DNA of 64,000 nucleotides from NCBI GenBank assembly GCA_963845755.1, contig CAWJTV010000029.1, positions 64,001 to 128,000 of the forward strand. The letters run 5' to 3'. The DNA is from an uncultured Planctomycetota bacterium. GTDB taxonomy: Bacteria; Planctomycetota; Planctomycetia; Isosphaerales; Isosphaeraceae. A program made the position numbers and the translations under genes. Positions 2,248-55,177 of the stretch are shown here, piece by piece. The notes under the pieces are model-generated. The model saw only the letters and a list, made by a program, of their open reading frames with translations. It was not told where the DNA came from and did no database searches. Position 1 is the first letter of the stretch; every line of letters begins with the position of its first letter.

Positions 2248-3819
2248 ATGGCCAATCATCGTCCAAACCACCGTAAAGGTCAGGGATCGAACCCATCGCG
2301 ACCGGGACAGCGCCCGCGCCCGGGGACCGGGCCGGGCCCTCGGCAGGGATCGTCGGGAAAATCCGGAGGACGACCCTCGGGCGCTCGGTCCAGGGCCGCC
2401 CCGGCCGGTCGCCAGCCGGCGGCATCCACCGGCTCCCGCTCGGAGTCGGGCAAGCCGGAACGGCTCCAGAAGGTCCTGGCGCAGGCCGGTCTGGGCTCGC
2501 GGCGCGGCTGCGAGGAACTGGTCCTCCAGGGCCGGGTCACCGTTGATGGGAAGGTGGTCCGTCTGCTGGGCACGAAGGTCGATGCCGCCCGGGCCCGCAT
2601 CGCGGTCAACGGCGAACCGATTCGTCGGGAACCGATCGTCTACTTCGCCGTCAACAAGCCCAAGGGTTACGTATCGACCAATTTCGACCCATCCGGACGC
2701 CCCCGCGTCGTCGACCTGCTCCCCGAGATCCCCGAACGGGTTTATACCGTCGGACGCCTGGACGAGGACAGCACCGGGCTGATGATCCTGACCAACGACG
2801 GCCATCTGGCCAACGGGCTGGCGCATCCCCGCTACGGCGTCGAGAAGATGTACCGGGCGCTGGTCGCCGGCCTGCCAGCCCCCGAGACGATCGGCAAGTT
2901 GACCGAAGGCATTTGGCTCTCCGACGGAAAGGTCCGCGCCAAGCGGGCCCGGGTCGTGGGCCGCCAGGGCCAGGCCACTCTCGTGGAGCTGGTCCTCGCC
3001 GAGGGGAAGAAGCGCGAGATCCGGCGGATGCTGTCCAAACTCGGACATAAGGTGATGGCGCTGAACCGTGTCGCCGTCGGGCCGATCACGCTCAAGGGGC
3101 TGCCCGTCGGCGAATGCCGGCCCTTGACGCGCCACGAGGTCGACCTGCTCCGCAAAGTCGCGTCCGGGATCGCGGTGTCGGTGCCGGACTTTGCCGATGC
3201 CAAATCGTCGACCCGATCGCGTCGCGACGGACCACCCCGAGACCGGCAACGACCTCACCCACACATCGCGGAACCATCCCGCTCGCCTCGTCGGGAGCGT
3301 GACCGGCCCGCGAGCGAGGAGGACGCCGGAGCGGCCCGGCCGCCGAGACGCCCCGCAGGCGCACGCGATCGCTCGTCCCACGGCGGGTCGCGACCGGTCC
3401 TCCCTCACGATCGGGGCCCCGCCGCATCGGGCACCCGCGGCAGTCCACCGAGCCGGGGCCCTCGCGGCCATGCGGTGGATTCCGGCGCACCACCCGACAC
3501 AGCGACCGGACCGGCGTCCAGGTCGAAGCGGGCTCCGATCGGCGCGAACCCACCTCCCGACAAACCGAAGCGTCCGGCGCGAACCCCCCAGCCCAAAACC
3601 GCTCGACCGGTCTCCGCTCCACCCGAGGAGGCACCACCCCGGCGCCGCATCATCGGACTGGAGGAACCCGCGCCCACCACGGGCCCCCGCCGGACCCTCG
3701 CGGGCCGTCCCGGTCGAAAACGACCGACGGCCCGGAAGCCCAGGCCACCCCGCGGCACGCCGGCACCCCGGCCCAGCCGTCCGGTTCCCGACGAGAAGAC
3801 GAACGACGATGGACCATAA
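2248..3819 (+). CDS. rluB: RsuA/RluB-family rRNA pseudouridine synthase with S4 domain and long Arg/Pro-rich tail
   Basis: ERLQKVLAQAGLGSRR (S4), NKPKGY, VGRLDEDSTGL (catalytic Asp), EGKKREIRRM. Confidence 0.9.
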   Translation: MANHRPNHRKGQGSNPSRPGQRPRPGTGPGPRQGSSGKSGGRPSGARSRAAPAGRQPAASTGSRSESGKPERLQKVLAQAGLGSRRGCEELVLQGRVTVDGKVVRLLGTKVDAARARIAVNGEPIRREPIVYFAVNKPKGYVSTNFDPSGRPRVVDLLPEIPERVYTVGRLDEDSTGLMILTNDGHLANGLAHPRYGVEKMYRALVAGLPAPETIGKLTEGIWLSDGKVRAKRARVVGRQGQATLVELVLAEGKKREIRRMLSKLGHKVMALNRVAVGPITLKGLPVGECRPLTRHEVDLLRKVASGIAVSVPDFADAKSSTRSRRDGPPRDRQRPHPHIAEPSRSPRRERDRPASEEDAGAARPPRRPAGARDRSSHGGSRPVLPHDRGPAASGTRGSPPSRGPRGHAVDSGAPPDTATGPASRSKRAPIGANPPPDKPKRPARTPQPKTARPVSAPPEEAPPRRRIIGLEEPAPTTGPRRTLAGRPGRKRPTARKPRPPRGTPAPRPSRPVPDEKTNDDGP

Positions 3820-47859: not shown

Positions 47860-48614
47860 ATGAGACGCATTTTCGTCGCGCTCTTCACAACAATCCTCCT
47901 GACGAGCCCAGTTCACTCGACCCGGGCGGATGACAAGGATCCGCAGGCCGTCATCGACAAGGCGATCAAGGCCCTGGGGGGCGAGGAGAAGCTCAAGAAG
48001 GCCGACATCTCGACCTGGAAGACCAAGGCGACGCTTACCTTGGGTGGCAATGAGAATGACATCACGATCCATTCAACCATCCAGGGCCTCGATCATTATC
48101 GCGCGGAGGTGGAGGGCAAGTTCGGTGAGAATGAGTTCAAGGGAACCGTCATCCTGAACGGAAACAAGGGCTGGCGAGTGTTCGGTGAGAAGATGGAGAT
48201 GGATGACGACTCCGTCTCGAACGAGAAGCGCCACGATCTACCTCCAGGTCATCCCCAACAGGATCCTCCCCTTGAAGCAGAAGGAGTTCAAGGTCGAGGT
48301 GGTCGGCGAGGAGAAGGTGGGAGACAAGCCGGCCGTCACCCTCAAAGTGACCCCTCAGGATGGCAAGGACTTCACGCTCACTTTCGATAAGGAGAGCGGC
48401 CTGCCCGTCAAGATGGTGGCCAAGGTGGTCGACTTTCAAGGTGACGAGTTCACCCAGGAGACCTCCTACAAGGACGTACAAGGAGTTCGACGGGATCAAG
48501 AAGGCCACCAAGACCGAGAGCAAGCGCGATGGCGAGGACTTCATCAAGTCCGAGATCAGCGAGTTCAAGGTCCTGGACAAGGCGGACCCCAAGACTTTTG
48601 CCGAGCCCGAGTGA
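47860..48614 (+). CDS. Exported hypothetical protein, paralog 1 (two frameshifts)
   Basis: Signal peptide; DDKDPQAVIDKAIKALGGEEKL...FDKESGLPVK...YKEFDGIKKATK. Confidence 0.75.
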
Positions 48615-48853
48615 GGATCGGGCATCAGGCCGGGGCCTGGGGCATCGCAAGCCCGAGCGGGATTCCCCATTGGGACTTCACCGCGGCCTCGGCCCGCGAT
48701 CGGAGCGAGAAGAGCCCGACGCCCCCTGTCGCTCACGCCTCGCGCCGCGTAGGATGAGGAACTCATGCCGGCGCGACCGCGGCGGCGCGATCCCACGCCG
48801 GGACGTGACACAACCGCGTCCGGCGACTTCCTCTCACTCGTGAGGCCATCTCG

Positions 48854-49614
48854 ATGAAACGGTTCCTCGGTGCGACCCTCGCAACTTTTCTCTTGGCGAT
48901 CCTGGGCAGCCCCGTCCAGGCCGATGACAAGGATCCGCAGGCCGTCCTCGACAAGGCGATCAAGGCCCTCGGGGGCGAAGAGAAGCTCAAGAAGGCCGAG
49001 TCGATCACCTTGAAGACCAAGGGGACGATCACCTTCGGTGGTAATGACAGCGAATTCAAGTCGAACGTAACCCTCCAGGGGCTCGACCACCTCCGGTCGG
49101 AAATCGAAACGGAATTCAACGGCGAACCCCGTAAGTTCGTCAGAGTGCTGAGCGGCGACAAGGGCTGGATGAAGTTCGGGGAAGAACCGATGGAGAACTG
49201 GAAGAGGACGCCCTCGCCAACGAGAAGCGACGCGCCTATCTCGAGGTCATCCCGATGACGCTGGTCGCACTGAAGGGGAAGGCGTTCAAGGTTGAGACGG
49301 CCGATGAGGTGAAGGTCGACGACAAGCCGGCCGCCGGCATCAAGGTCACCGGACCGGACAAGAAGGATTTCACGCTGTACTTCGACAAGGAGAGCGGGCT
49401 ACCGGTCAAGCTGGTCGCCACGGTCGCCGGCTTCGGAAACGGCGAGGATTTCTCGCAGGAGACGACCTACAAAGATTACAAGGACTTCGACGGGATCAAG
49501 AAGGCCACCAAGGTCGAATCCAAGCGCAACGGCGAAGCCTTCATCAAGTCGGAGATCACCGAGTTCAAGCTCGTGGATAAGGTCGATCCCAAGACCTTCT
49601 CCGCGCCGGAGTGA
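48854..49614 (+). CDS. Exported hypothetical protein, paralog 2 (one frameshift)
   Basis: Same motifs as 47860-48614. Confidence 0.75.
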
Positions 49615-49697: not shown

Positions 49698-50147
49698 TTA
49701 CGCCTTGCGACCGCCAACCTTGATCTGCCGCGGCTTGGCCGATTCGGACTTGGGCAGCGTCAGAGTCAAGACGCCGTGTTCGAATTGCGCCTGGGCCTTG
49801 TCCGAGTCGACGGGCGTGCCCAGAGTGATCGATCGCTGGAACGAGCCGAACCGGCGCTTGCGCAGGTGCCATCGCTCACCCTTCTTTTCCTCCTCCGCCT
49901 TGCTCTCGCCCTGGATCGTCAGGGTGTCGCTATGAACGGTGATCTGGACGTCCTCGGGCTTCACGCCCGGCAGCGATCCTTTGACCACGAACTCGTTCTC
50001 ATTCTCCGAGATATCGAGTGGAAGCGTGGCGAAACCGCCCGATCCCCCTCCATTCGAAGGTCGGACAAAGCTGTCCTGGAACAAGGTGTTCATTGCATCA
50101 CGGAGGCTGACGGCCTCACGGAACGGGTCCCAACGTTCGATCGTCAT
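49698..50147 (-). CDS. Hsp20/alpha-crystallin small heat shock protein
   Basis: ERWDPFRE, LDISENE, LPGVKPED, FGSFQRSITL, AQFEHGVLTLTLPK; GAGGAG RBS. Confidence 0.95.
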   Translation of the reverse strand: MTIERWDPFREAVSLRDAMNTLFQDSFVRPSNGGGSGGFATLPLDISENENEFVVKGSLPGVKPEDVQITVHSDTLTIQGESKAEEEKKGERWHLRKRRFGSFQRSITLGTPVDSDKAQAQFEHGVLTLTLPKSESAKPRQIKVGGRKA

Positions 50148-50246
50148 GGAATAGGTCTCCTCATCGCCCGCAGTCGGAAGAGCCCGGCCCGATCGCCCCT
50201 GCGTCGCCTGCCGCTCCTCCTGGACTTCAGTCTCTTCAAGGAGATG

Positions 50247-50415
50247 GCAAGCCTTGTGCCAACGCGTTGAGAGAAAACATAAGTAGTTACACAATAAGGC
50301 ATTGCAACAGAAGGAATCTGCGACTGCCAATTCGGGTACTGCCAATTTGGCATAGAAAACCTGAGCGAGTCGCATAGATGCCGATTTGGCAGTCGAGATA
50401 AGTGCCGATGTGGCT
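50247..50415 (-). promoter_or_regulatory. Sigma54 promoter of hsp20 with upstream palindromic enhancer-like sites
   Basis: TGGCAC-AAGGC-TTGC (50261-50247); TGCCAATTTGGCA 50340, TGCCGATTTGGCA 50379, TGCCGATGTGGCT 50403. Confidence 0.8.
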
Positions 50416-50546: not shown

Positions 50547-50587
50547 AAAAAATAACCCCGCGATGCCCGTTAGGGTCAAAGCGGGGT
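50547..50587 (-). terminator. Rho-independent terminator formed by the second RNA repeat
   Basis: ACCCCGC...GCGGGGT stem followed by TATTTTTT. Confidence 0.75.
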
Positions 50588-50717
50588 GAGTAAACGCTAC
50601 GCACCACCCATGAAGAATAATGCGAGGCGAGCAGACAGCCAACGCAAACCTGATAGCTATAGCCATCAGGTCGCATCGGGCCTCACGATGTCCTGGGGGA
50701 TCAAGGTGAGGTGAGTA
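50547..50717 (-). ncRNA. Putative ~170-nt structured RNA with two 37-nt hairpin repeats, downstream of the NYN gene
   Basis: Repeats at 50681-50717 and 50556-50592 (26/37 identical, 3 compensatory pairs); central hairpin 50639-50679; own promoter and terminator. Confidence 0.7.
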
Positions 50718-50721
50718 CCCA

Positions 50722-50750
50722 ATAGTATCGGCTGGTCGCCTCTCAATCAA
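50722..50750 (-). promoter_or_regulatory. Sigma70-like promoter for the putative ncRNA
   Basis: TTGATT-17bp-TACTAT, starting just after the NYN stop codon. Confidence 0.65.
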
Positions 50751-50754
50751 TAGC

Positions 50755-51372
50755 TCACCATCGCTTTTCTGTCCGGTCGCTAAATGGTTTTTCGAGCCAC
50801 ATACCATCCATGAATGATTCATCAATGACCAGGTGATCGTTGGCGGCTTCACGCATGAGTCGGATGGTGCGATGATCCGAAGGGTTCGCGACCACATACG
50901 CCAGCATGACATACGCATCGACCTCCCTGGCGAGTTGGATTGCTGGGAGATAGTCGTTGTCATTGGCGACCAAGACGAGCAGGTCTGCTCGCCTCAAACA
51001 AGCGGCAGAGACCAAAAGAGTTGCCGCGCGGACATCCGTCCCCTTCTCGACATGGGTATTGAGCGGACGGTGGCAATGGCGGCATGAATCATTATGAGTA
51101 CGATGTTGGCCCTTGGAAACGGTCACATTCTCCATCCGAGCGAGCCGATTGAACGTGCGTTGCTGACGCTGTCTCATCCCACTCCGGTGTGGGTCTTGCG
51201 ACTGGACGTAATCGGCGGTGCAGAAATAGGTATGGAGGAGCTGGGTTCCACGTGACAGCGCCGCGAAGAGCTTCGTGTAATCGACATCACGAGTGTCGAT
51301 CCCTTCGGAGAGTCGATGGTCCAAATTGGTCCCGTCGATAAAGAGGAGCGAAGTCGGTAGATCTATCGGCAC
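50755..51372 (-). CDS. NYN-domain (LabA/DUF88, PIN-like) nuclease
   Basis: FIDGTNL, EKGTDV, ANDNDYLP acidic motifs; CxxC insert; GGAG RBS; intact frame. Confidence 0.9.
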   Translation of the reverse strand: MPIDLPTSLLFIDGTNLDHRLSEGIDTRDVDYTKLFAALSRGTQLLHTYFCTADYVQSQDPHRSGMRQRQQRTFNRLARMENVTVSKGQHRTHNDSCRHCHRPLNTHVEKGTDVRAATLLVSAACLRRADLLVLVANDNDYLPAIQLAREVDAYVMLAYVVANPSDHRTIRLMREAANDHLVIDESFMDGMWLEKPFSDRTEKRW

Positions 51373-51422
51373 GTATTAGCTCCGTTGGTCAAGGGGACGC
51401 TGTATCAGTCGCGGCCCTTTCG

Positions 51423-53169
51423 CTACGTCACTTGAGGTTGCGAGGCCATCGCTTGACCGCCAAGTCGGCCAGGCGCCTCTGGCGTTCCTCGATTAGTCCG
51501 ATCGTCCACTTGTCCGGGTCCCTTCTTCGTGCGCTCGATTACATCGGCGGTTAACAAGATGTTGCTGGACCTCGAGATGACGGGCCGCTTCTCCGAGAAT
51601 GGCTTATCGTTGATTCCGCCGTTGTCCTTGGCTTTTAGCAGCACCATGTTCCCCAGCCGATTGCAATAAAGCTTCCGCTGTTCGTCTGTGAAGTGCCCCC
51701 ATCCTCTTATGACCGCCGGATTCTTGGGGAGGATATGTTCCAAGCTGAGCATGGTGGTATCTGCAACAGGCCTTAACAGTTCATCTGGGCTGCCTCCATG
51801 CGCCTCCTCCTCCAGCCTTGCGCAGGAAGAATCTCGCCTGTCTGCTGGATGTCAAGGTCTTCCTGCAAAATGCCGCATAGAACTTGGGATCGCTCGGTAT
51901 AACCTTATCGACACTGTGCTGGCGAGTTGTTTCGCCGTTTTGATCTCGTCCATCCTGATAGCGTGCGCTGCATTGCCTGAGAGCTGATTCGGCCGCGCCG
52001 CTCCGGCTCCCACCCGCGATCAGGAAGCGGACGACCCATGAGACGAGCAGGCGGAATGCCTTCTGTGCCTCCGAAGGAGTGAAACGTGCGGCGATAGACA
52101 GCGTGAGTGGCCGAATGAAGCTCATCTTTAGCTCTTGGGAAATTTGATCAACGCAAATGCTAACCTGCTGTTGATATTGTCCCCACTTCGCATGTCGGCC
52201 GGATTCAGGATCGCGGCGTAGTCGCTCGCATAGTTCGCCAAGGCTTCCAGGAACTGAAGCGATGGCGCCCTGCCGACGATCTTGTCTTCCATGTAATCAA
52301 ATATATTGTCTAATTTAATCGGCCCGAAGAACACGATGCTGACGTGGTGCAGATATGCTAGCAAAGGGTCTCCGTCGAAGGGCCGAATGACCCCCTCAAT
52401 CGAACTCCGCATGGTTGACCATTTTGCTTGAGCCTCATCGACGCGATTCGTCGGCATGTTCAAATAGATGATTCTTAATCATATCTGCCTGAGTAGTCCT
52501 CTGCACTCGGTCGTTCTGCGTCTTGAACATCTGATATGCACGAGACGCATTCTTGGCGGTGAGCCTCGCCACCACGGCCTTGTTATCGATGAAGTCAACC
52601 CAGGCGTTTAACGCATCCACTTTGCCGGAGTCGCTGTCGGCGTTGGCCATGATCGTGCGGACCCTGTCGGCGGCGATCTCTGTCGCCCCATCGATGAGAC
52701 GATGCGAATAGAACCGCTTCGTCGGTTCGTCCTTCCTGTCCCCCTCGCGGACCAGTACGCGAGCCATCATGTACTCGCGGTCATCGGTGTTGAGGGTAAG
52801 CCTTGGGACGTTCTCTCGAATTCTCCGGTCGCGCTTGAATAGAAAATCGTCTTCGATCGACTTGGCTTCTTCGACTTGGCCGAGACGAAGAAATGCGTCT
52901 CGTACGGCCGCGAGAAAGATGCTGGTCGTCGCGAGTCGTTGCTGACCGTCAACGACGCTTGGCGGGGACCCCTGCGTCAACACGATGGTCCCGAGAAAAT
53001 AAGGGACGCTCTTCGAGACAGCCTGATTCAGATCGTCAAACAACTTCTTTACACGTACATCTTTCCATGAATATTCGCGCTGGTGATTCGGAACGCGCAG
53101 AGGCCCATTCCGGAGGGCGCCTCCTAGGGTCTCCCGAACCACATCGATGAATTGTTCGGCCTCAGTCAT
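51423..53169 (-). CDS. GmrSD-family DUF262 + DUF1524 (HNH) protein, several frameshifts
   Basis: VPNHQREYSW, YFLGTIV, VVDGQQRLAT, FKTQNDR, DMIKNHLF; C-terminal LEHILP...NRLGNMVLL..N. Confidence 0.85.
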
Positions 53170-53565: not shown

Positions 53566-55012
53566 GATGTCCGTTTCGTAAATCGCCCGCCAGTTTTCGG
53601 GGATCTGGACAAGCCACGTAGTTTTTGAGATCAAAGGGATATCGTTTCGGAGATTTCCTCAAGGCTCCTCCATCACGGATGTCACCGATGCCTTTTCCCT
53701 TCGCAGAGACGGTCTCACCGACGGACGCCCAGCGCGCTCAACTGGAGGGGCTGGTTCGTGCCAGGTCCACGCCCCAAGCCTTGGCCTTCCGCTGTCGCTT
53801 GATCCTTCGAGCTGCTGAGGAAGACCAGCCGACCAACCTCCAGATCGCCGCCGAGTTCCACTGCGATCGCCACACTGTGGGCGACCTGGCGGAGCCGCTA
53901 TCTGGTTCACGGTTTGGCCGGGGCTTCAAGATGCTCCGCGGTCGGGCCGACCGCGGAGCTTTTCCCCCCTCGGAACGGCTCGATGTGATCTCCTTGGCTA
54001 GCAGCACCCCGGGCCCACCGGATACCCCGGCCACGCGGTGGGCTCTCGATGACTTGGCGGCCGCCCTCATCAACCGGGCCGCCCATGACCGTGCCATGAG
54101 TCGCTCGACGATCTGGAGGACCCTGGACCAAGCCGATCTCAAGCCACACCGCAGCGTCTACTGGCTCAACAGCCACGATCCCGACTTCGACGCCAAGGCC
54201 CTGGCGATTTGCAAGCTCTACCTGGAAGCACCCGTGATGTACCAACGAGGACGGCTGCTGATCTGCTGTGACGAGAAGACGGGGATGCAGGCGTTGGGAC
54301 GGACTCATCCCACCCAACCGGCTCGGCCGGGCAAGCCCGCCCAGGCGCGAGCAAGACTACATCCGCTATGGGACACGGGCCTTGATCACCTCGTTCATCG
54401 TGGCGACCGGTGAAGTGATCGGCGATTTGGGACCGACCCGAACCAGTGTCGATTTCGCGGCGCATTTGGGACACGTCGCGGGCCAGTTCCCCGAAATCTT
54501 CGGGTGTGACTGGGTCGTGGACAACCTCAACACGCATTGGAGCCGGGACGTCTGCCGGCTGATGGCGGAACTCTGCGGTGTCCCGTTCGTGGCGGCGGAA
54601 TTGCGCACGGGCCGGCAACGGCGCACCTTCCTGACGGACCCGACTCACAAGCATGTATTTCATTTCACCCCGACGCATGGCTCCTGGCTCAATCAAGTGG
54701 AGTTGTGGTTCAGCGTGCTGACGCGACGGTTCCTCAGACACGGCGATTTCGCGTTCGATGGCGGATTTCGAGGCCCGGCTGCTCGGCTTCCTCGAGGACT
54801 ACAACCGGTCTCATGCCCATCCCTACCAGTGGACCTACAACGGGAACGCCGTTGGTTCGCGGGATTCCGTTCAGTCAGACACGTCGCCAACAACAGCAGG
54901 GACATGCCTGGTTCAGCCCACGGCCGCAACGGTTTCAACGGGACCTTTACCCTCCAAGGCCCTACAATCGACGACTCAAGAAAACTGGCTAAGAACTTAC
55001 GAAACGGACATC
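53566..55012 (+). mobile_element. IS630-family insertion sequence (transposase frameshifted)
   Basis: Perfect 16-bp TIR GATGTCCGTTTCGTAA, flanking TA in CTAG context; HTH, DEKTGMQAL, YIRYGT, DNLNTH, HFTPTHGSWLNQVELWF. Confidence 0.95.
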
Positions 55013-55177
55013 TAGTAGTACTCCGTTAGATTTCCAGGCCAAAGGACGCGAGTCGGCTTTCACACAAGACTCATGGCATCGAGGCAATTTGATGCATCAA
55101 GTCTGCTTGATGTCATAAGTCATTATCCACAAATAGGTAACGTCAAAATGTCCTCTCGATCTAACGGAGTAGTACTA
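55013..55177. mobile_element. MITE-like 165-bp element
   Basis: TAGTAGTACTCCGTTAGAT / ATCTAACGGAGTAGTACTA, 18/19 IR; AT-rich non-coding interior. Confidence 0.65.

Follow-up and report, generated by a model that had tools for sequence, protein, structure and literature searches.

We analysed a stretch of 64,000 nucleotides (nt) of the contig CAWJTV010000029.1 from an uncultured Planctomycetota bacterium (positions 64,001 to 128,000 of the forward strand; the whole of this stretch is hereafter the window) and found on its minus strand a self-contained module, which consists of an NYN nuclease gene and, directly downstream of it, a predicted small RNA carrying two diverged copies of one hairpin. 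We are highly confident that this module is real; the fold of its hairpins is under constraint, and the RNA and the NYN gene are exclusively linked. It appears to be undescribed, as the RNA has no match in Rfam and we found no paper on such a pair of NYN nuclease and RNA. An earlier note on this DNA had proposed a structured, non-coding RNA with its own promoter and covarying hairpins, tied to the NYN gene; the folds, alignments and orthologous loci presented here bear out this prediction, and its coordinates for the NYN open reading frame (ORF), for TTGATT-17-TACTAT, for both 37-nt repeats and for the T-run proved exact to the base. The parts of the module, all on the minus strand, are as follows.

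50755..51372: NYN nuclease gene (LabA/DUF88-type, HEC-09-like) with a CxxC beta-hairpin insert, from the ORF, Pfam, PADLOC and an AlphaFold2 (AF2) model
50722..50750: predicted small-RNA promoter, TTGATT (50750-50745), 17 nt and TACTAT (50727-50722) with CGA just before it, from the sequence and the alignment of seven loci
50547..50717: predicted non-coding RNA of about 170 nt, made of hairpin r1, two window-specific hairpins and hairpin r2/terminator, from the fold, the lack of a conserved ORF and the lack of an Rfam match
50681..50717: repeat/hairpin r1, from the sequence, the fold, covariance model R1 (53.7 bits) and pair counts
50639..50679: hairpin H2, window-specific and absent from the orthologous locus L003, from the minimum free energy (MFE) structure, its palindrome and its being an insertion relative to the other loci in the alignment
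50624..50636: 13-nt stretch, covering the linker between H2 and H3 and the first bases of H3, that can pair without mismatch to NYN mRNA 50983-50995, from a repeat search and shuffles
50595..50629: hairpin H3, window-specific, from the MFE structure
50547..50592: repeat/hairpin r2, which is also an intrinsic terminator (stem 50587-50555, then UUAUUUUUU), from the sequence, the fold and model R1 (59.7 bits)

The NYN nuclease

The ORF encodes 205 amino acids (aa) and ends in a TGA stop at 50757-50755. Its product matches the Pfam family NYN (PF01936) with an E value of 2.8e-9 and 38.1 bits, above the curated cut-off of 24.2, and the Pfam scan of the 205-aa protein returned no other family. In an alignment of 36 sequences D13, K110, D113, D138 and D140 are invariant; the ORF is intact with its acidic catalytic motifs (D13, D113, D138 and D140), just as the earlier note had it, and a conserved H-x6-C-x2-C motif sits in the beta-hairpin insert. 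The AF2 model of the protein has a predicted local distance difference test score (pLDDT) of 94.6 and its top structural match in the PDB is 2qip (VPA0982), a LabA-like NYN protein (E 1.3e-7, TMt 0.78), so that model and match together give a PIN-like alpha/beta fold and the protein resembles the LabA/DUF88 NYN proteins of PF01936 in fold as well as in catalytic residues. A sequence search of the PDB with the family profile gave chance-level matches only. NYN domains are RNases, and with its invariant catalytic Asp residues and its confidently predicted NYN fold the enzyme, as modelled, looks active. Its predicted homodimer scored 0.69, a value to be read against the 0.82 reached by one unrelated control.

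The PADLOC model of HEC-09 (PDLC04163) also matches the window protein, with an E value of 6.8e-19 over profile positions 6-179 of 203, and it matches the NYN proteins of four orthologous loci described below (L003, L006, L007 and L016) as well. HEC-09 has been described as an NYN protein with three conserved MARF1-like Asp residues and a zinc-ribbon-like piece, embedded in Hma (helicase-methylase-ATPase) systems (10.1101/2024.01.29.577857). The window protein shares with it the match to the model, the NYN domain, the three conserved Asp residues and the zinc-ribbon-like piece. It differs in having a downstream RNA, as the parts of that report on which we draw treat HEC-09 as a single gene and mention no RNA partner, and in adjoining a GmrSD remnant and an Hsp20 gene where HEC-09 is embedded in Hma systems, although no search of the window was aimed at Hma.

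A further promoter-like sequence was noticed at 51363-51392 on the minus strand, where TTGACC and, after it, GCCGATAGAT overlap the GTG annotated as the NYN start; this sequence is similar to the small-RNA promoter (TTGATT ... CCGATACTAT). In the orthologous loci L004 and L005 a conserved TCGAC(T/G)-17-TAC(C/G)AT lies 6-7 nt 5' of the NYN start codon, and its position suggests that the NYN mRNA of these two loci may be leaderless.

The RNA downstream of NYN

The TTGATT box of the predicted promoter starts four bases past the NYN stop, and the ends of the RNA were placed by the -10 box (5' end) and the terminator (3' end). Hairpin r1 is made up of a 5' UACUCA flank, a 6-base-pair (bp) outer stem, a 2x2 pyrimidine loop, UG/CA, a bulged A, UCC/GGA and a 4-nt loop. 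After an 88-nt spacer (50680-50593) follows repeat 2 (50592-50556) and then TTATTTTTT at 50555-50547. By hand count the two repeats are identical at 26 of 37 positions, and a repeat finder reports the same pair at 70%. Recounting the 11 differences gave what the earlier note had listed: three compensatory pairs (9/35, 11/33 and 18/27), four changes in the terminal loop and one in the internal loop. A terminator scanner did not call r2, the stem of which is broken by the internal loop, and r1 has no T-run. The predicted fold of a 174-nt stretch spanning the RNA has four hairpins and an energy of -82.3 kcal/mol (z = -7.06); none of 200 shuffles was as stable. We rejected the possibility that the RNA is coding: the RNAs of seven loci share no start-to-stop ORF, and the 63-aa ORF of the window crosses the terminator.

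No terminator separates the NYN stop from the RNA, and the NYN mRNA is therefore expected to include the hairpins as its 3' end. This placement in cis would fit an RNA that controls the expression of NYN, either by base-pairing with its mRNA in a type I-like manner or through cleavage by the nuclease of its own 3' untranslated region (UTR) as in Regnase-1, and so would the 13-nt perfect complement to NYN codons in the window, a length that none of 200 shuffles reached. Regnase-1 (ZC3H12A) is an NYN/PIN-like RNase which recognises stem-loops, and one of these lies in the 3' UTR of the Regnase-1 mRNA itself; unlike the present module it is eukaryotic, belongs to a different NYN family and comes without a separately promoted RNA. 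We consider control of expression rather improbable. In five other loci the longest complement between RNA and NYN mRNA is 7-9 nt, which 50-199 of 200 shuffles matched, and is thus at chance level; a conserved independent promoter would moreover be needless for a purely cis-acting element. Antisense pairing with the NYN mRNA as a general mechanism was rejected, because duplex energies were no better than those of shuffles in six of six loci. The 13-nt complement of the window may be a lineage-specific extra layer or may be due to chance.

The module in other Planctomycetota

Loci were assigned to the subfamily at a protein identity of at least 35% to the window protein. Contig scans gave 12 loci from genome contigs and 80 from metagenome contigs, and seven distinct loci with at least 150 nt downstream of NYN were compared: the window, L003, L004, L005, L006, L007 and L016 (the same as L015 and L122). 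L003 comes from a metagenome-assembled genome (MAG) of Isosphaeraceae, the NYN protein of which is 47% identical to that of the window, L004 is from Phycisphaerales, L005 and L006 are from Tepidisphaeraceae and L007 is from Phycisphaeraceae; the subfamily thereby covers two classes of Planctomycetota at 38-47% protein identity. The earlier note had asked for the RNA next to NYN orthologues, and in all seven distinct loci it is there: on the NYN strand, downstream of the gene, promoter boxes are followed by a hairpin RNA of 95-170 nt and then by a GC stem with a T-run. The -35 box is TTGAC(T/A) or TTGATT and the -10 region contains CGATA in the seven loci, and their alignment shows TTGA, ATA and the terminator stem as the sole invariant intergenic columns. 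A terminal hairpin with T-run homologous to r2 is present in L003, L006 and L007, while the window RNA carries an extra variable insert of 88 nt. An eighth locus (L008 = L017) ends 61 nt past the NYN stop and has the promoter-like boxes; it may be noted that L008 and L017 are two assemblies of one locus, both breaking 61 nt past the stop, where the RNA would start. Neighbouring genes are unlike in every locus and include genes for glucose dehydrogenase, GH9, an EF-Tu-like GTPase, IlvD and AcrB, and likewise AraC, a fucosidase, GT2 and a Mg-chelatase-like ATPase.

The pair L004 and L005 showed where the constraint lies. Their DNA is similar over 845 bp (75.5% identity), a block that starts about 50 nt 5' of NYN and closes at the RNA terminator and beyond which the flanks cannot be aligned. 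Identity within NYN is 84.8% at codon position 1, 90.4% at position 2 and 53.8% at position 3; of the two 3' hairpins the first reaches 90.9% and the second 92.5%, so that constraint on the hairpins equals that on second codon positions. Identity over the 5'-most 39 nt of the RNA is 48.7%, the stretch from the NYN stop to the -35 box is 56.7% identical and the spacer is about 53-57% identical; the promoter stretch (3616-3651) is 52.8% identical, yet TTGACT and GGCGATAGTAT within it are intact. Similarly, when the GC-rich L006 was compared with the AT-rich L007, blastn aligned solely the 54-nt terminal hairpin, at 90.7% identity.

These comparisons also bear on the possibility that there is no functional link at all, in which case the promoter boxes would be a product of chance and the hairpins either terminators in tandem or part of a small RNA unrelated to NYN. 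Such a reading could draw on r2 being a plausible intrinsic terminator and on the silence of a promoter consensus scanner in the window, but terminators or chance boxes are not expected to be 91-92% identical where codon position 3 is 54% identical, nor to recur in seven of seven loci of two classes with different neighbours; moreover the RNA is found only beside this NYN subfamily and r1 has no T-run. We therefore hold the absence of a link to be extremely improbable.

The same figures could be read in another way, with the RNA as a required partner of the nuclease (a scaffold or cofactor, a dedicated substrate for it to process, or a guide whose conserved hairpins bind NYN and whose variable 5' part chooses the targets) and not its inhibitor. 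The L004 and L005 RNAs, with 48.7% identity over the 5' 39 nt and 91-92% over the 3' hairpins, would then be a variable segment on a conserved scaffold, the 88-nt variable insert of the window RNA would be a further such segment, and a missing partner could explain why HEC-09 had no phenotype in E. coli, provided that its clone did not include a downstream RNA. On the other hand, in each locus the variable 5' part folds into stable hairpins, which is unlike a guide, and the window RNA has no significant match in the phage and plasmid collections or in the rest of its genome. NYN is frameshifted in two of the eight loci (L007 and L008), either by decay or by MAG error, with the RNA intact in L007, and a frameshifted NYN with a retained RNA fits a toxic gene better than an RNA-dependent enzyme. 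A required partner is accordingly possible, though in our judgement unlikely. A more specific form, in which the hairpins are the NYN-binding scaffold and the fast-changing 5' or central part is a specificity segment, would make the module an RNA-programmed ribonucleoprotein nuclease and not a toxin-antitoxin (TA) system; it takes its cue from the 91-92% identity of the scaffold against 49% of the 5' segment in L004 and L005 and from the 13-nt mRNA match of the window insert, and we give it very little credence.

Structure of the hairpin family

The hairpin occurs twice in the window RNA and one to three times in the related RNAs. Its outer part is a GC-rich stem of 6-7 bp followed by a 1x1 or 2x2 pyrimidine mismatch, its inner part a helix of 2-3 bp with G-C as its last pair, then a bulged A, replaced by GAA/A in L006 and L007, and a YCC/GGR stem, and a single-stranded UAC lies about 3 nt 5' of it. 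Within the window the 5' TACTCA and the internal loop TTGA/CATC are indeed invariant, as the earlier note had said; across loci the invariance gives way to UAC-YCR for the flank and to YUWGA / YWUM or the GAAU/AA variants for the loop.

Six aligned hairpins have standard pairs in 66 of 66 cells, with compensatory change at four of 11 pairs, a result which none of 500 shuffles reached and which is to be read with the caution that the six sequences come from four lineages and that related sequences can beat shuffles. When the partner was slid by 1-3 columns, pairing fell to 37-56%. A covariance model (R1) was seeded with four hairpins, two from the window and two from L003, and applied to a search set of 99 sources (467 kb). 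There it detected two terminal hairpins from outside the seed, that of L007 with 27.7 bits (E 1.5e-4) and that of L006 with 24.7 bits (E 1e-3).

L003 has two hairpins of the window type, CCCCGC-YUUGAUCC...GGACAUMGCGGGG. One position of the internal loop is C in the 5' copy and U in the 3' copy, both in L003 and in the window; the copies of the two loci thus match in order, which implies that the duplication predates the split of the lineages and that both copies were retained. The hairpin of L004, L005 and L016 (group B) reads CCCGYG-CUAGACC...GGCUAUC-RCGGG, and L003 has one of these beside its two window-type hairpins. From its sequence the group B hairpin looks like a register variant of the window type. 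As for the strand, the stems contain G-U pairs, which on the opposite strand would read C-A, so the RNA is sense to NYN, and the orientation of promoter and T-run agrees with this.

Specificity and distribution

The hairpins are confined to the module within the window genome. A strict pattern of the repeat found two sites in the 14.27-Mb genome and its reversed control none, no further copies appeared in that genome at up to eight substitutions, the covariance model gave only the r1 and r2 sites at E < 1, and blastn of the whole RNA element returned only itself; the window genome has a single copy of the module. We rejected on these grounds, with two copies genome-wide by pattern, covariance model and blastn, a dispersed repeat of the repetitive extragenic palindrome (REP) kind. 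This was a scattering that the earlier note had named as a possible refutation, and it did not materialise.

With R2, a second covariance model built from group B, the five genomes of L003-L007 gave matches at E < 1e-3 at the NYN locus and nowhere else. The same model gave no match at E <= 0.1 in 89 loci of more distant NYN homologues (the best being L035 with E 0.33), and a search of the class to which the L004 genome belongs gave nine weaker NYN loci, all without an RNA match; the module differs in this from the more distant NYN loci examined, which show no associated RNA. Among 150 other genomes of the phylum there were two matches away from NYN, in G060 (34.9 bits) and G026 (25.5 bits), both of about 78% GC and with no NYN nearby by tblastn. 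We regard the two as compositional, although the one in G060 has the right shape and stays unexplained.

Rfam 15 gave no relevant match in the window region at E <= 10. Its sole hit to overlap the RNA was mir-374 (E 4.2), whose 17.8 bits fall short of the gathering score of 54, and no match was obtained at E <= 1 at the RNA of L003-L007 and L016. A match to a known Rfam family, which the earlier note had said would remove novelty, is thus lacking in the window and in six related loci, and the RNA defines a new structured family.

In viral contigs three hairpin patterns gave 0 matches and a scan for the NYN subfamily gave one distant homologue only; blastn of the RNA found a 21-nt chance match (E 0.7) in phages and none in plasmids. 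A word-indexed protein search returned five matches to NYN. Among 1.84 billion representatives there are 16 NYN clusters at E <= 1e-30, 782 at <= 1e-10 and 4221 at <= 1e-3, the 16 marking a rare subfamily and a limited reach for any finding on it. The closest protein relatives, among them P0001 (74% identical), belong to clusters that are metagenome singletons. Of 401 genomes sampled from the phylum, six match NYN at E <= 1e-10, five of them distantly, and a separate search of 401 genomes in the class of the L004 genome added only the L016 genome. The subfamily is thus rare and has so far been seen in Planctomycetota and metagenome contigs only.

A selfish mobile cassette, in which NYN is a homing-type nuclease and the RNA restrains it or serves mobility, might account for the sporadic distribution and for the unrelated contexts with sharp boundaries. 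Yet we saw no convincing terminal repeats or target-site duplications around the module and no common insertion target among its sites, the window genome holds one copy, the RNA is sense and downstream instead of antisense, and NYN domains are known as RNases, so that a cassette of this kind seems to us quite improbable.

Distant NYN genes occur elsewhere without this RNA, namely on small E. coli/Klebsiella plasmids of 4-5 kb, a Carboxydocella plasmid and a Streptomyces plasmid. The one on the ColE1-type E. coli/Klebsiella plasmids (NZ_CP033397.1, 357-1193) has its end about 55 nt away from RNAI, which controls replication (Rfam RF00106, 68.2 bits). In Dehalococcoidales and metagenome contigs, distant homologues with 25-30% identity (L009, L021, L023, L026-L032, L034-L036, L038 and L039) have downstream of them a conserved ORF that starts MGWDEIK...DWGG...YPN.YY.GMSNLG, which is a different gene pair, again without the RNA.

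Relation to known systems and proposed function

We favour the reading that the RNA is an antitoxin-like inhibitor of the NYN nuclease and that the two form an abortive-infection or addiction module similar to type III and AbiF-RCd22 systems, and we put the chance of its being correct at about even. NYN protomers would bind the hairpins, possibly cutting at the single-stranded flank, and an abundant, short-lived RNA would keep the nuclease inactive, acting in trans when free and in cis when transcription reading through from NYN places it at the 3' end of the mRNA. Upon a collapse of transcription, brought about by phage infection or loss of the element, the RNA would decay and the freed nuclease could then degrade cellular or phage RNA. 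Signals of a conflict system are the HEC-09 match, the sporadic distribution, the low-GC island with a GmrSD remnant and an IS630-type transposase, and the frameshifted NYN genes.

Among tested systems the closest precedent is AbiF with RCd22, an RNA of about 100-130 nt with a SigA promoter, a Rho-independent terminator and two copies of a hairpin motif, which neutralises AbiF by direct binding, in cis and in trans (PMC12373285). The predicted RNA of the window is likewise furnished with its own sigma-70-type promoter, a terminator and two hairpin copies, and lies beside a predicted RNase; it differs in that the protein is NYN/PIN-like and not Abi_2/HEPN-like and in that the RNA is downstream and not upstream of the gene. 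The abiF motif of Rfam (RF03085) was not matched at the RNA, neither in the window (E <= 10) nor in the six related loci (E <= 1).

In the type III systems ToxIN, CptIN and TenpIN one promoter drives upstream tandem short repeats, a terminator and then the toxin gene, and the toxin cuts the RNA array into units (PMC5086642). The module has in common with them a predicted endoribonuclease gene with an adjacent repeat-bearing RNA and the expected logic of a labile RNA in excess over a stable nuclease. Unlike them, it has the RNA downstream and under its own promoter, an unrelated nuclease fold (NYN and not ToxN, CptN or TenpN) and 2-3 diverged hairpins, which are separated by other structure or, in L006, adjacent. 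Neither the toxin family nor the single-promoter layout with upstream repeats was found. Since toxin fold, gene order and repeat organisation are all different, the module is by definition not a type III TA system; of the earlier note's label "type III TA-like" the likely logic survives and the membership does not.

Several observations weigh against an inhibitory RNA or against parts of the evidence put forward for it. The layout, with a downstream RNA, its own promoter and diverged non-tandem hairpins, differs from that of every proven RNA-antitoxin system, and PADLOC recognised defence neighbours in none of the six loci scanned outside the window. HEC-09 gave no protection in E. coli against the phages tested (10.1101/2024.01.29.577857). 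The promoter consensus scanner did not call the window promoter, which has 8 of 12 matches at a threshold of 9 of 12, and the spacing of -35 and -10 boxes differs among the loci, 15-19 nt by hand count. Model R1 scores the group B hairpins of L004, L005 and L016 at just 7-9 bits, so that their inclusion in the family rests on R2, which was built from them, and on our own reading. The orphan match in G060 (L119 1501-1543; G060:C136:11775-11817) has the same architecture and lies between ilvE and the start of a methyltransferase gene, though without a promoter box or T-run. Finally the sample is small, seven loci mostly from MAGs, in which the frameshifts may be assembly errors.

Literature on NYN with an RNA antitoxin, abortive infection, anti-phage activity and structured RNAs yielded no paper that pairs NYN and RNA. 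If the RNA does neutralise NYN, the module would bring a new nuclease fold to the protein-toxin/RNA-antitoxin systems now represented by ToxIN, CptIN, TenpIN and AbiF-RCd22, as well as a new layout, in which a downstream RNA with its own promoter ends in a terminator doubling as a binding hairpin. It would also offer a hypothesis for HEC-09, for which a test of the single gene gave no phenotype: a partner RNA may belong with the NYN gene.

Genomic context of the module in the window

NYN lies within an island of low GC content (52-58%, the genome as a whole having 64%). The features flanking the module are as follows.

51423..53169, minus strand: remnant of a GmrSD-type (HEC-06-like) restriction gene, split over four ORFs and immediately upstream of NYN, from ORFs, Pfam and PADLOC
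53625-55029, plus strand: two overlapping ORFs for an IS630-type transposase (HTH_32 and DDE_3), on the margin of the low-GC island
49698-50375, minus strand: Hsp20 gene 3' of the RNA terminator and on the same strand; the long ORF probably starts further in, at MTIERWDPF

The GmrSD-type gene consists of GmrSD_N (52435-53169), two unannotated pieces and GmrSD_C (51423-51752) in alternating frames, with Pfam E values of 6.5e-26 for GmrSD_N and 3.1e-14 for GmrSD_C and a PADLOC E value of 4.5e-59 for HEC-06; it is split either because it is a decayed defence gene or through frameshifts of the assembly. Beyond the Hsp20 gene, at 47860-49614 on the plus strand, tandem paralogous ORFs encode small proteins with signal-peptide-like starts, which have no Pfam match and have in common the motif DDKDPQAV(I/L)DKAIKALGGEEKLKK.

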